The notes under the pieces are model-generated. The model saw only the letters and a list, made by a program, of their open reading frames with translations. It did not search any database and had not been told where the DNA came from. A stretch of 39,408 nt of DNA from a virus (Duplodnaviria > Heunggongvirae > Uroviricota > Caudoviricetes). The stretch is from positions 1 through 39,408 of the IMG/VR virus record IMGVR_UViG_2917849834_000006, one strand, 5' to 3'. Shown here piece by piece: positions 91 through 39,134 of the stretch; the first letter of the stretch is position 1; the number at the start of each line of letters is the position of its first letter. The translations under genes were made by a program, and so were the position numbers.

Positions 91-165
91 ATGACGTTGT
101 CTCCTTATTTGCAAGAGGTGGCGAAGCGCCGCACTTTTGCCATTATTTCTCACCCCAATAATTAA
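91..165 (+). pseudogene. prfC: 5' fragment of the peptide chain release factor 3 gene (about 21 native codons) ending in a premature stop where phage DNA begins; marks the left prophage-host junction
   Basis: Translation of 91-165 is [24 protein letters not shown]; residues 1-22 match the RF3 N-terminus as I recall it (…AIISHPDAGKTT…), with divergence at about position 156 followed by AT-rich DNA. Confidence 0.5.
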
Positions 166-319
166 GCCCAAATTAAAGCTCTTTTACTCTTTCAAAGTCC
201 TTTCAGTTAATTGAGTGCTAATCATATAACTCATTTAATAACATGATGTTATGTGGTTTCTTTAATTGAAAATTCTTTCATGTAACTTTAAATCGATCAG
301 CTTGCTTTCATCAAAAATC

Positions 320-376
320 TGTACATGTGCTTGTACATAATGTACAAAACAGCAGAGGTGTTTTTTTATTTGTACA
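320..376. repeat. Cluster of four TGTACA hexamers immediately upstream of int, including the 17-bp palindrome TTGTACATAATGTACAA (331-347)
   Basis: Read directly; TGTACA at 320, 332, 341 and 371; the half-site resembles the immunity-region operators. Confidence 0.6.
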
Positions 377-385
377 AGGTGAGTA

Positions 386-1609
386 ATGGCGCTGTCTGAT
401 GCGTGGTTGCGTTCAGTCGTTGGAAAGGAACGTGATAAGGTTTTGGTTAAATCCGATCGTGATGGTCTGTCTGTCAGAGTATCACCGAAAGGTCGCGTAG
501 TGTTCCAATATCGTTATCAATGGGCAGGGAAAGGTGAGCGCCTTGATATCGGAACTTACCCGGCAACTGGATTAAAAGAGGCCAGAGAAGAGGTTATCCG
601 TCTCCGTGGTGAACTCGAGTCAAACCGCAATCCACGATTAGTCAAGCAGGCTGAAAAACGAAAAGCTACTGAAGCCATGACGGTAGAGTCTGTGATCCGT
701 GCCTGGTATGAAGCATATTGTGTAAAAAATAAAAAAGGTTCTGAACAGATACTCCGCTCGTTTGAGCTGCACCTGTTCTCTAAAATCGGGAATATCCCTC
801 ACGATGCAGCTACATTGCATGATTGGTTAGAAGTCCTGGAGCCTCTTAGCACTAAGACTCCAGCAATAGCAGACCGATTGCTAATTAACGCAAAGCAGGC
901 CCATGTCTGGGCGTATAAGAGAAAGCTCATTGAAACTCGCCCGCTGTCGGATATCACGGGTAAAGATATGGATATCCGTAAAGGTCAGAAGAAACGGTTT
1001 CTGACACATGATGAAATTAAAATCCTTTATGCTGCGATCGATGGTTCTCGAATGGTTCCTAAATACCGGGCCTTCATTAAACTATTGCTGCATTTTGGCT
1101 GCCGTAGTTCAGAGCTAATTACCGCCAGGGTGGACGATTTTGATTTCATTAATAAAGTATGGACTGTACCACCAGAACGACATAAGACTGGGGAGATAAC
1201 AGGCGAACCGCTAAAGCGGCCCATTATTGAACCGGTTGAAGAGCTTATAAAGTACGCTATTTCTATGAACAATGGTTCCGATATGCTTTTTACTAAGGAA
1301 GGAAGCAGGGAACCCGTTGGTCGGACATCATTGCAGTCGCTGCCTTACAATTTAATGCAGTACGCATGGCGGCGTTTGGGGTATCAATTCCCTCATTGGT
1401 CTCTTCATGATTTGAGGCGAACAGCACGAACAAACTTTTCTGATCTTACTGCGCCTCATATTGCAGAAATAATGCTAGGTCATAAACTGCCAGGGGTATG
1501 GCAAGTTTATGACAAGAGCGATTATCTAGAAGAACAGCGTAAAGCCTACCAGGCATGGTGGGAGAGAGTTGAATCGATCGTTACTTGTACTAACTCAGAC
1601 ACCAACTGA
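386..1609 (+). CDS. int: Phage tyrosine integrase (P4-like family)
   Basis: 407-aa ORF with RBS; C-terminal catalytic region HDLRRTARTNF…LGHKLPGVWQVYDKSDY typical of tyrosine recombinases; position next to the host junction. Confidence 0.9.
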   Translation: MALSDAWLRSVVGKERDKVLVKSDRDGLSVRVSPKGRVVFQYRYQWAGKGERLDIGTYPATGLKEAREEVIRLRGELESNRNPRLVKQAEKRKATEAMTVESVIRAWYEAYCVKNKKGSEQILRSFELHLFSKIGNIPHDAATLHDWLEVLEPLSTKTPAIADRLLINAKQAHVWAYKRKLIETRPLSDITGKDMDIRKGQKKRFLTHDEIKILYAAIDGSRMVPKYRAFIKLLLHFGCRSSELITARVDDFDFINKVWTVPPERHKTGEITGEPLKRPIIEPVEELIKYAISMNNGSDMLFTKEGSREPVGRTSLQSLPYNLMQYAWRRLGYQFPHWSLHDLRRTARTNFSDLTAPHIAEIMLGHKLPGVWQVYDKSDYLEEQRKAYQAWWERVESIVTCTNSDTN

Positions 1610-1796: not shown

Positions 1797-2348
1797 ATGC
1801 ACCATCCAATACCCGCACAGTTAGATACGCCTGAAACCCTGAATTTTTGTCTGAAAGTTGTTCCTGATGCTCATGCTGTATTGATTAAAAATGAACCTTT
1901 CTCGGGAGCGGAAGTTATGGACTGCTTTTCGAATGTTGAAATGGTGATTGAACAGAATGGCGGAAGAGCTGTTTACGGTTGGGCTATCTGGCAGGTACCG
2001 GGAGTTTATATTGAAGCTGAGTTCCACTGTATTTGGGAGAATGATGCTGGAGAAATGCTGGATATCACGCCATATCCTTATAGTACGGAAAATATTTTAT
2101 TTCTACCTGATAGTACGCGGATTTATAGGGGGCAGCAGGTAGACAATATCCGCCAGGCTCTTGTAAATGATCCTGATGTGATCAGATGGTTGTATCTTGC
2201 TAGAAAACGTTTTGAAATATTAAATACTGGTGACCTAGCGAACCAGCATGGGCATATTGAATTGCCACCCAAATTAGCCAAAGAGTTTAGCAAAGTTGTC
2301 GATGAGATAGAAAGGCTGTATTCCCGACTAAATCTCCGATATTCATGA
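1797..2348 (+). CDS. Hypothetical protein, low-GC cargo gene between int and xis
   Basis: 183-aa ORF; no recognisable motifs; lower GC than flanking phage genes. Confidence 0.5.
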   Translation: MHHPIPAQLDTPETLNFCLKVVPDAHAVLIKNEPFSGAEVMDCFSNVEMVIEQNGGRAVYGWAIWQVPGVYIEAEFHCIWENDAGEMLDITPYPYSTENILFLPDSTRIYRGQQVDNIRQALVNDPDVIRWLYLARKRFEILNTGDLANQHGHIELPPKLAKEFSKVVDEIERLYSRLNLRYS

Positions 2349-2963: not shown

Positions 2964-3158
2964 TTACTCAATAACTCCAGCAAACCTGTATATCTTGCGT
3001 GATGCCCATTTATTTGGGCAGGATTTAATATCAGGATCTGGAAAATCAGGCCTGTATTTCTGGCCAGTTCTCCTGTTTACGCTATTCCAGCGAAGAACAG
3101 TCGATACTGAAACGCCACAGAATTCGGCAACTTGTTTTGTTGTCATTAAGTTGTTCAT
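2964..3158 (-). CDS. xis: Excisionase / AlpA-like HTH DNA-binding protein
   Basis: 64 aa; TTKQVAEFCGVSVSTVLRW helix-turn-helix typical of AlpA/Xis family; first gene of the leftward operon near int. Confidence 0.7.
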   Translation of the reverse strand: MNNLMTTKQVAEFCGVSVSTVLRWNSVNRRTGQKYRPDFPDPDIKSCPNKWASRKIYRFAGVIE

Positions 3159-5337: not shown

Positions 5338-5371
5338 GGATACATTATGTATCCCAAGGGTACATTGTCAA
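5338..5371 (-). promoter_or_regulatory. Candidate leftward early promoter (PL-like) with overlapping operators
   Basis: Minus strand TTGACA (5371-5366), 16-nt spacer, CATAAT (5349-5344); 17-bp palindrome GGATACATTATGTATCC (5338-5354) and operator-like site TGTATCCCAAGGGTACA (5348-5364). Confidence 0.45.
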
Positions 5372-5398
5372 GTATAAAAAAACCTGCCGAAGCAGGTT
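5372..5398 (-). terminator. Rho-independent terminator downstream of the cI-like gene
   Basis: Minus-strand hairpin AACCTGC-ttcg-GCAGGTT followed by a T7 run, 13 nt after the cI stop. Confidence 0.6.
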
Positions 5399-5410
5399 CA
5401 TAAATATTGA

Positions 5411-6085
5411 TTAGGTCTTTATTTTGTATCTTCTTGGTTTTCCCGAGAAAATCACTGTACCAATTATAGAGCAATTACCGTTGATCTTAATGTAAGGTTC
5501 AGGCCAGTTTGGGTTTAATGCTTTGAGGTAACGCTGTGTTCCATCTTCTATCAACCGCTTGAAGGTGGTTTCGCCTGTATCGTGCATCAATGCAATAACG
5601 TCGTCACCGTGGCAGGCAGGGACTTCAGGATCAACAAAAATCATGTCTCCTGGGCGGTACTCATCAATCATTGAATCACCAATCACCCGCAAGATATAAG
5701 TCATTTCACCACAGGGTACAGGGCAGGGATAAGTTTCTGCTGTGCTCAAATCAACCTCAGAATAACCAACTTCTTTCCATGCTCCGGCCTGTACCCATGA
5801 TATGACAGGGACTAACGTTATTTGTTTGTTAGTGATTGAAACATCAGGTTTTTTTGTGATGTTCGTTGTCTGGTGTTCTTGATCAAGCCATCCGACAGGC
5901 AGGTCGAAACATTTTTCGATGTGCCGTGCCATGCTGTCACCGATATTTTTAGTTGCACCATCTCCCATAAACCTGCTGGTCTGGGTTGGCTCGCGATCAA
6001 TCATGGTGGCAAAGGAAGAATTCCCGCCAACACCATCTCTCAGTTTTCTGGCGTTAGACCGCCGGATGTCATGGACTGTTTTCAT
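5411..6085 (-). CDS. cI-like repressor with C-terminal S24 (LexA-like) autopeptidase domain
   Basis: 224 aa; N-terminal HTH region and C-terminal VIGDSMIDEYRPGDMIFVDPE S24 signature; divergent from the cro-like gene. Confidence 0.85.
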   Translation of the reverse strand: MKTVHDIRRSNARKLRDGVGGNSSFATMIDREPTQTSRFMGDGATKNIGDSMARHIEKCFDLPVGWLDQEHQTTNITKKPDVSITNKQITLVPVISWVQAGAWKEVGYSEVDLSTAETYPCPVPCGEMTYILRVIGDSMIDEYRPGDMIFVDPEVPACHGDDVIALMHDTGETTFKRLIEDGTQRYLKALNPNWPEPYIKINGNCSIIGTVIFSGKPRRYKIKT

Positions 6086-6100
6086 AATGAAATTAAAACC

Positions 6101-6169
6101 CTTGTACCGTTAAGGTACAAGTATCTTGAAGGTTCATTTTAATCATGTAATATGTACATCGGAGGTACA
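6101..6169. promoter_or_regulatory. OR-like operator/promoter region with two 17-bp operators (TGTACC-N5-GGTACA at 6103-6119; TGTACA-N5-GGTACA at 6153-6169)
   Basis: Perfect palindrome CTTGTACCGTTAAGGTACAAG at 6101-6121; second near-identical site overlapping the cro RBS; candidate rightward promoter TTGAAG (6126-6131), 16 nt, TAATAT (6148-6153). Confidence 0.6.
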
Positions 6170-37213: not shown

Positions 37214-38590
37214 CTATGATATTCCTGAAATATCCTCTTCAAGTTCTTTTACTGATTTCGCAATTTTAAATTTAAATTTCCTCTCTATTTCACTATTGCT
37301 AAGTTTTTTTTCCTTCTCTTTCCCTATCCACATAGAAACAAGTTCTCGTTTCTGAGATATATGTAGATTGTCAAAGTTAGGTATGTATTTAAAAGTCTCC
37401 GCTCTACCTCTGCGGAGTTCATAGAAAGTTTTAATCAAAGACTTTGGTTTTATTTCTGATAAAAGGCCGAATCGGCGGATAAGATTATTGATAGTATGAT
37501 TAACAGAGCGAAGTTGAGCTGTTGAGGTTATTTGTGAGAAGTACGATACCCATCCCAATCGTTTACCTTCAAACACACATCCCGTAATTCTGAGATTTAG
37601 TTTCCACTGACAATATGCAACAGCTCGTTCTTTATCGCGCTTACTTTTAGCTTGTAGTAGAGCGTGCCTATATGCAGTAAAAATTTTTGCTAAGGATGAC
37701 TCAAATCTAAGAATGCTCTCATGTTTTATCAATAATTCTCGATTTTCTATGTGGTATCCCAAAAAGTTAAAACTTTCATCCAAGCTGCCTACTTTGGATT
37801 TTGAGTTCTCTTCATTTAATGGATGTGGGTTTAAATTTAATGATTGAAGCTTATCAATGATATGAGATGTTATTTTTGTTGCTTGATATTTGGGCGTTAA
37901 AATAAGAATGTCATCAACGTATCGCATGTACCATATGCCATGCATTTTATTGATTTCATCATCGAAATTAGATAGTGATATTTCAGCTAAAATGTTTGAT
38001 ATCGCTAATCCCTGAGGTACTCCTCTGGTATTATTAGGGATACCTTTGCTTCCTGTACTTCCACTTACAGTAGGTACGATTAATGATGATGTTATTAACT
38101 GTCTAATTTCTTTTTTTCTAATCTTATTTTTTATTGCATTAAATATCAATTTATGTTCAATTGAAGGATAGAAACTTTTAAGATCTATTTTTGCATATTC
38201 AGCATATAGACTGCAGTTTAATGCTTCTTTCAATGAGTCAATTACTGTATGTGGTAGTTTTAATCTGGAATTAGGATATATTTCCGTAAGGCATTCACAG
38301 AGAGCCCTAAGAGTAATTCTGTCCCTAGCAGTTGGTATGGAAATCTGTCTGGGGGTAGAGTTAGCCCCTTTAGATATTAATTTTTCTTTATATGCTGTAA
38401 ATTTATAATTGCCAGAATTAACCTTTTCAAAAATGAAAGTGATCTCATTGTTTATTGTTAAATCAAGTTTTGATGGGCGAATCCGATCTATGCCAATCGC
38501 TCCTGATTCTTTGATTTTTTCAGTGTATACTTTTAGAAGGTTTTTTTTCGAGAATGACTTTTTAAAAATTCTACTTGCAGTCATAGTCAA
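37214..38590 (-). CDS. Reverse transcriptase (prokaryotic defence-type; retron/Abi/DRT-like, family unassigned)
   Basis: RT motifs read in translation: PRQISIPTARDRITLRAL, IDLKSFYPSI, GVPQGLAISNILAEI, WYMRYVDDILIL (YVDD catalytic box), FLGYHI; C-terminal extension of about 150 aa; about 30% GC; track start is TTG, an ATG lies at 38584. Confidence 0.9.
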   Translation of the reverse strand: MTMTASRIFKKSFSKKNLLKVYTEKIKESGAIGIDRIRPSKLDLTINNEITFIFEKVNSGNYKFTAYKEKLISKGANSTPRQISIPTARDRITLRALCECLTEIYPNSRLKLPHTVIDSLKEALNCSLYAEYAKIDLKSFYPSIEHKLIFNAIKNKIRKKEIRQLITSSLIVPTVSGSTGSKGIPNNTRGVPQGLAISNILAEISLSNFDDEINKMHGIWYMRYVDDILILTPKYQATKITSHIIDKLQSLNLNPHPLNEENSKSKVGSLDESFNFLGYHIENRELLIKHESILRFESSLAKIFTAYRHALLQAKSKRDKERAVAYCQWKLNLRITGCVFEGKRLGWVSYFSQITSTAQLRSVNHTINNLIRRFGLLSEIKPKSLIKTFYELRRGRAETFKYIPNFDNLHISQKRELVSMWIGKEKEKKLSNSEIERKFKFKIAKSVKELEEDISGIS

Positions 38591-39113
38591 TCCAAAGATA
38601 TATTAATGGTAGTATATAAAGTGCGGCAGTAATAAATATTCGAAGTAATATCCATAAATTAACAATTATTTTTTCTTTTTGTGTGGGGAGCCTCGTCGTA
38701 AGTCCAACTTGAGTTACCCTTGAAACTTTATCATCTATCTCACGATGATTCTCAACCTCATTGAGCAAATTAAAATATTTTTCTTTCTGTTCAGGAGTTA
38801 ATTGTTGGCCGTTGGTAATGTCAAAATAGAGTCGCTGTAGTGCAATATAATTCCTTCTCATGGCTATTGCTCGACCACGAAAATCTAGGTTAGATACGAT
38901 CAGAGAAATACCTAGTAGAGCCACTGAAAGTATCGCTGCAACGATATCTGTATTATCTCCTAGAACTTTTGGAAATCGTAACGTTACAATTGAAAGCACC
39001 GCACTCAATATAGCATACCAAACGAGGATTAATTGAGAGTGTTTTTCAAGCCATTCTAGTCGATGGTGCGCTTGGATACGGGCTTTATATGTAAACCAAA
39101 TATTGTCATGCAT
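38571..39113 (-). CDS. Small multi-pass membrane protein co-transcribed upstream of the RT (candidate effector)
   Basis: 180 aa; three hydrophobic helices (about residues 27-45, 57-77, 152-176) around a charged middle region; AGGA RBS; ends 8 nt before the RT ATG; same low GC. Confidence 0.7.
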   Translation of the reverse strand: MHDNIWFTYKARIQAHHRLEWLEKHSQLILVWYAILSAVLSIVTLRFPKVLGDNTDIVAAILSVALLGISLIVSNLDFRGRAIAMRRNYIALQRLYFDITNGQQLTPEQKEKYFNLLNEVENHREIDDKVSRVTQVGLTTRLPTQKEKIIVNLWILLRIFITAALYILPLIYLWIDYDCK

Positions 39114-39134
39114 AAAAGATCCTTTTTTAAAAGC

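Follow-up and report, generated by a model that had tools for sequence, protein, structure and literature searches.

Clustered TGTACA hexamers in attL of a prfC-integrated lambdoid prophage as probable arm-type sites of the adjacent integrase

What are the TGTACA hexamers crowded ahead of the integrase gene of this prophage for, and with which of its genetic modules do they belong? The window, the whole 39,408-bp stretch of DNA that we analyzed, contains seven copies of TGTACA where 7.6 are expected, so that the total is at chance level; four of the seven lie within 57 bp, at 320-325, 332-337, 341-346, and 371-376, the last of them 9 nt from the int start at 386. In none of 300 first-order Markov simulations did a 60-bp segment reach three copies, and the probability of at least four in any 60-bp segment is, by a Poisson estimate, ~5e-7 for the whole window; the clustering near int is non-random. 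Two of the hexamers lie within TTGTACATAATGTACAA, a perfect 17-bp palindrome with an odd center at 331-347. The first-pass annotation had described four TGTACA copies in 60 bp before int and a 17-bp palindrome ahead of the gene, and both descriptions are borne out; its two readings of them, as repressor operators controlling int or as integrase sites near the att junction, fared differently.

The window is the left part of a cdtI/Ayreon-type lambdoid prophage that lies in the 5′ end of prfC. Positions 1-165 are host DNA, comprising the prfC promoter region and the first 24 codons, and the identical prfC flank is present in Stx phage records and in Trabulsiella and Pantoea loci. The features that define the junction and the recombination genes are as follows.

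91..165, plus strand: 5′ remnant of host prfC, with the native ATG, a 24-codon stub, and a phage-derived TAA at 163-165, pointing towards int
142..155, plus strand: 14-bp att core ATTATTTCTCACCC, the crossover region, common to attB and attP
386..1609, plus strand: int, coding for a 407-aa heterobivalent P4/CP4-like tyrosine integrase and read away from attL
2964..3158, minus strand: xis, coding for the recombination directionality factor (RDF; phrog_1553 excisionase, E 1.3e-34)

The core is annotated as a 'duplication due to insertion' at both ends of the element in 27 Stx1a and Stx2c prophage records. It is single here, with no second copy of ATTATTTCTCACCC and no attR within the window, and attR must therefore lie beyond it. 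The right end of the window (38400-39120, minus strand) is AT-rich, codes for apparently hydrophobic proteins, and resembles a moron or cargo region upstream of attR. Because the hexamers lie between the core and int, they fall in the P′ arm of attL, which spans 142-385.

The integrase is of a type that needs arm sites, as it carries an Arm-DNA-bind_3 domain (PF13356, residues 3-90, E 1.9e-16), followed by PF22022 (Phage_int_M) and PF00589 (Phage_integrase); its N-terminal domain matches PDB 3jtz, the N-domain of a CP4-like integrase, and the protein as a whole matches the phrog_1 integrases. The xis gene, whose product has weak HTH_17/MerR matches, is on the strand opposite int, and the two genes share no operon and are uncoupled. 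Between them on the int strand is a 183-aa open reading frame (1797-2348, plus strand) that matches phrog_37148 and no Pfam family; in phage Ayreon a different, 2.2-kb gene takes this position, which makes it a variable cargo slot.

All TGTACA copies fit the flank-inclusive consensus TTGTACAT(A/N)A, which gives each an orientation, and on this basis we predict four P′ arm-type sites, oriented forward, forward, reverse, and reverse.

319..326, plus strand: P′1, predicted arm-type site cTGTACAT, the first of a 12-bp tandem pair
331..340, plus strand: P′2, predicted arm-type site TTGTACATAA, the second of the tandem pair
338..347, minus strand: P′3, predicted arm-type site, reading TTGTACATTA on the minus strand and forming the 331-347 palindrome together with P′2
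369..378, minus strand: P′4, predicted arm-type site TTGTACAA, an 8-bp palindrome whose inverted orientation is suggested by the wider family

The hexamer core is itself palindromic, and orientation is set by the flanking T and A bases only; a palindromic core is unusual among arm-type sites, which are oriented. P′2 contains a −10-like CATAAT (336-341), P′4 abuts the int ribosome-binding site AAGGTGAG at 376-383, and P′3 is restricted to the lineage in which Int is at least 78% identical.

The P arm lies with attR outside the window, and we therefore took it from three relatives: phages Ayreon and cdtI, and an Stx2c lysogen. The att and int region of Ayreon, a free-phage genome, is 97-98% identical to the window, and its intact attP has five TGTACA copies within 240 bp on the P arm, then the core, and then the same four copies on the int side. 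The cdtI attP carries four copies on the P arm and four on the P′ arm, and attR of the Stx2c lysogen (L229, LC727876.1) has the same four P-arm copies. One tandem pair on the P arm, the 22-mer TGTACAtatgatTGTACAtaat, differs little from its P′ counterpart, TGTACAtgtgctTGTACAtaat. The word is thus a feature of both arms, occurs in either orientation as far as ~230 bp from the core, and is absent from the core itself; a short word so distributed is the defining layout of the arm-type sites of heterobivalent integrases.

In the lysogen attR, a phage-supplied 5′ end restores the full prfC open reading frame (L229, 555-760; Ayreon, L001, 2481-2550), and the new prfC ATG supplied by the phage is preceded, at 21-38 nt, by a tandem TGTACA pair; at attL, no more than 66 nt separate the pair TGTACA-N6-TGTACATAAT from the int ATG. 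Integrase bound at the attR pair might affect expression of host prfC. A speculative extension, suggested by the similar placement of the pairs, is that integrase on the arm word at the two junctions, with CATAAT as a possible −10 element in both, could link the expression of int and of the host release-factor-3 gene to the recombination machinery; we consider this unlikely.

Conservation of the hexamers was compared with that of the surrounding DNA in two sets of homologues. In an alignment of seven attL regions, with integrase identities of 78-100% (from Escherichia coli phages, Trabulsiella, Pantoea, Salmonella, and a metagenomic contig), every hexamer column between the core and the int ATG is invariant (24/24), compared with 54 of the 206 other columns (Fisher p = 3.5e-13). 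The sole invariant runs of at least five columns are CTTTCA (275-280), TCTGTACAT (318-326), TTGTACATAATGTACAAA (331-348), and TTTGTACAAGGT (369-380), the first being the only one outside the TGTACA blocks. A further 12 Int homologues, with 50-85% identity and from hosts including Salmonella, Xenorhabdus, Serratia, Erwinia, Pantoea, Alcanivorax, Shewanella, Pseudomonas, and Vibrio, extend the comparison to loci where the DNA around the conserved words is otherwise unalignable. Eight of the 12 have an exact TGTACA-N6-TGTACA just upstream of int, a version with one mismatch is present in two, and only degenerate remnants are left in the other two; in most of the 12, an inverted TGTACA precedes the ATG by 12-30 nt. 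As in the window, prfC is the insertion site of several of these elements.

The association holds when the search is started from the motif. An IMG/VR scan using the integrase alignment returned near-identical prophages only, and a blind IMG/VR scan for TGTACA-N6-TGTACATAA returned 120 loci, mostly presumed chance matches; at 24 of the 120 an Int homologue (26-100% identity) is present, and all 24 have the motif 33-77 nt ahead of the int ATG. At one of them (L194, Int 37% identical) the TGTACA pair is on both arms, and elements from Vibrio, Pseudomonas, Moraxella, and others also have the word beside int. From these comparisons, the arm code TGTACATAA appears to be conserved to an unusual depth within a large clade of P4-like integrases, down to ~26% identity.

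A different word accompanies a different branch of the family. Salmonella phage SPN3UB and Klebsiella phage Kpn_R1, which target lepA and have integrases with ~46% identity, share the two-arm architecture but use the word TGTGTCCA, and their arm-binding domains differ from those of the TGTACA group by the substitutions S29W, Q41F, Y44F, R52K, and D54T. Since a lineage with another Int uses another arm word, the word follows the integrase, and it seems to have switched discretely to TGTGTCCA in the lepA-targeting relatives. In these two phages (SPN3UB, L106, JQ288021.1, 400-900; Kpn_R1, L107, 400-905) the attP core lies in a phage-borne lepA 5′ end (MKNIRNFSIIAHID), and the arm repeats, TGTGTCCA/TGGACACA, are on both arms. 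The lepA and prfC targets correspond, both being the G1-motif region in genes for paralogous translational GTPases.

We considered whether the hexamers could instead be additional CI operators that silence int in the lysogen, as in the repressor reading of the first-pass annotation, which noted that they share the core of the immunity operators. The immunity elements of the window are these.

5348..6169: immunity region, with cI at 5411-6085 (minus strand) and cro from 6176
6103-6119 and 6153-6169: operators TGTAC-N7-GTACA, between cI and cro, with a one-mismatch copy at 5348-5364

Operators of this SfV/cdtI type are 19 bp, wTGTAC-N7-GTACAw, and are not strictly conserved, the second OR site of SfV having TGTATA; the one-mismatch copy here lies to the left of cI, past its terminator. 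The shared core is real as far as the half-site TGTAC goes, and the dyad symmetry of the 17-bp palindrome is also what an operator would show, but the likeness does not extend to spacing: the half-sites of the palindrome are 5 bp apart, not 7, and the other copies are 12-bp direct repeats. Operator-spaced sites upstream of int are not above chance (14 matches in the window where 11 are expected), and the sole operator-type match there with up to two mismatches, 371-387, is at the level of chance. Exchange of modules among relatives points the same way. Twelve Stx1a phages combine this int and its four hexamers with an unrelated 234-aa repressor, and their operator region has GATAAAT/ATTTATC repeats and no TGTAC; conversely, SfV and SfIV have the same immunity region with a different integrase, and SfV has no TGTACA cluster, only three scattered copies in 37 kb. 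These swaps in the Stx1a phages and SfV indicate that the cluster travels with int and not with immunity, and the word is moreover kept beside int outside the lambdoid phages. By sequence comparison the cluster is part of the integration module, not of the immunity module; repressor control of int is not supported, by the 5-bp spacing, the Stx1a phages, and SfV alike, and we give operator function next to no credence. The apparent control link between immunity and int is thereby removed.

Nor do other DNA-binding proteins account for the pattern as well. Binding of Xis (2964-3158) to the hexamers would serve to bend attL during excision and to repress int, and some observations fit: the family retains a homologous Xis throughout, encoded in the distant loci by small open reading frames next to int, so that the constancy of the word could as well be due to Xis, and the KplE1 RDF, TorI, binds within attL and represses intS (PMC2951348). 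A palindromic hexamer would also suit a helix-turn-helix protein. RDF sites typically form a short array on one arm, as for lambda Xis and TorI, whereas the word here is on both arms and in both orientations, reaching ~230 bp from the core; it also remains constant though Xis diverges faster than Int (44% versus 61% identity at the Serratia locus), and faster-changing repeats between the core and the hexamers (YCTTTCA here) are better Xis candidates. An attempt to separate Int from Xis through unrelated RDFs beside the same word failed, Xis being homologous across the family. On balance we regard Xis as an improbable ligand of the hexamers. A host factor, or plain promoter elements of int, we find very improbable. 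TGTACA-N6-TGTACA does resemble the TyrR box, TGTAAA-N6-TTTACA, at 10 of 12 positions in a by-eye comparison, and the CATAAT in P′2 is −10-like; however, the word is always beside this integrase family, in hosts far outside the Enterobacteriaceae, and is also on the P arm, far from int. The att region has no match to the IHF consensus WATCAANNNNTTR, and a promoter scan was empty there. An RNA element was likewise considered and rejected, with no Rfam match at E ≤1 for positions 1-900 and a z of 0.06 for folding of 300-400.

The faster-changing repeats form a second family between the core and the hexamers.

188-194, 199-205, and 274-280, plus strand: YCTTTCA repeats
304-310, plus strand: GCTTTCA

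The invariant CTTTCA at 275-280 (among attL regions with Int at least 78% identical) belongs to this family, and the P arm of Ayreon has no YCTTTCA cluster. Other repeats take the same position in relatives, with CCAACTATTTGCAAYTACC present twice in one locus (L095) and GACAAGCTGAGCC or AAGACA-type repeats in six others (L009, L102, L103, L140, L149, and L171). We suggest that the YCTTTCA and GCTTTCA repeats are candidate sites for excisionase or for a bending protein.

We therefore return to the integrase, and consider it likely that the TGTACA hexamers are the P′-arm arm-type sites of attL for the adjacent Int, and that they probably double as an int autoregulatory element. The layout, the presence on both arms, the conservation, and the linkage to the integrase are seen directly in the compared sequences, and from them we infer physical binding of Int. 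The second reading of the first-pass annotation, integrase sites near the att junction, thus gains strong support from the two-arm word, the alignment footprint, and the tracking of the integrase. Each Int molecule would hold an arm site through its N-terminal domain and the core site at 142-155 through its C-terminal domains; the P′ sites, with the four to five equivalent P-arm sites, would fold the DNA into an intasome, which would perform integration into prfC and, with Xis, excision.

The hexamers resemble a known att feature of temperate phages and introduce no new principle, and we found no report of TGTACA arm sites at an attP or an integrase in the open-access literature. Lambda attP (P1, P2, and P′1-P′3) has a short word on its two arms that is bound by the N-domain of Int, with a P′ tandem array spaced by about one helical turn, and our set may be likened to the lambda P′ sites in having a repeated word on both arms and a tandem P′ array. 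Lambda, however, reads int towards attP from pL or pI, so that its arm sites stay clear of the int promoter, and its arm-binding fold is Phage_integ_N rather than Arm-DNA-bind_3. The SXT/R391 integrative conjugative elements share the prfC target and also supply a replacement prfC 5′ end, as the phage does here, but SXT int is transcribed from the SetCD-dependent Ps003, is convergent with xis, and does not directly abut attL. The satellite phage P4 is the founder of the integrase type with the arm-binding domain found here.

For regulatory geometry, the closest likenesses we draw are to KplE1 attL/intS and to P4 int. In KplE1 (CPS-53 of E. coli K-12), as here, int is read away from attL with its regulatory region inside attL, the P′ arm-type sites are just upstream of the int start, and the RDF gene is uncoupled; the two differ in target (the argW tRNA gene versus the 5′ end of prfC), in integrase lineage, and in arm word, and the promoter and binding of KplE1 are mapped whereas the sites here are predicted from sequence. 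The KplE1 arm-type P′ sites and the sites for the RDF TorI overlap PintS, and IntS and TorI both repress this promoter; the authors predict the same for any prophage with an int promoter inside attL (Panis et al. 2010, PMC2951348). Work cited in that paper has P4 int down-regulated by Int and by the RDF Vis.

The hexamers fill the final 66 bp ahead of the int ATG, and with the CATAAT in P′2 and P′4 at the Shine-Dalgarno sequence, their occupancy is expected to lower int expression. Int on its arm sites would thus repress int, a negative autoregulation like that of KplE1 intS, and such autoregulation is probable, as argued from position and precedent only. A scan of 1-700 found no sigma-70 promoter scoring at least 9/12 between the core and int, and only a host prfC promoter-like site at 1-28; manual candidates, TTGAAA-16-TTAAAT (266-293) and CATAAT (336-341, with no −35), lacked conservation or were unconvincing. 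Alternatively, int could be transcribed by read-through from the host prfC promoter upstream.

This analysis defines the attL and attP of prfC-integrating lambdoid phages, which include the cytolethal distending toxin phage cdtI and many Stx1a and Stx2c phages, and the signature TGTACA-N6-TGTACATAA, 30-80 nt upstream of int, offers a simple means of finding att arms across a broad integrase clade. We predict that excision of these toxin phages would be governed, as in KplE1, by expression of Xis over a low and self-limited level of Int, which would bear on the stability and mobilization of toxin phages.
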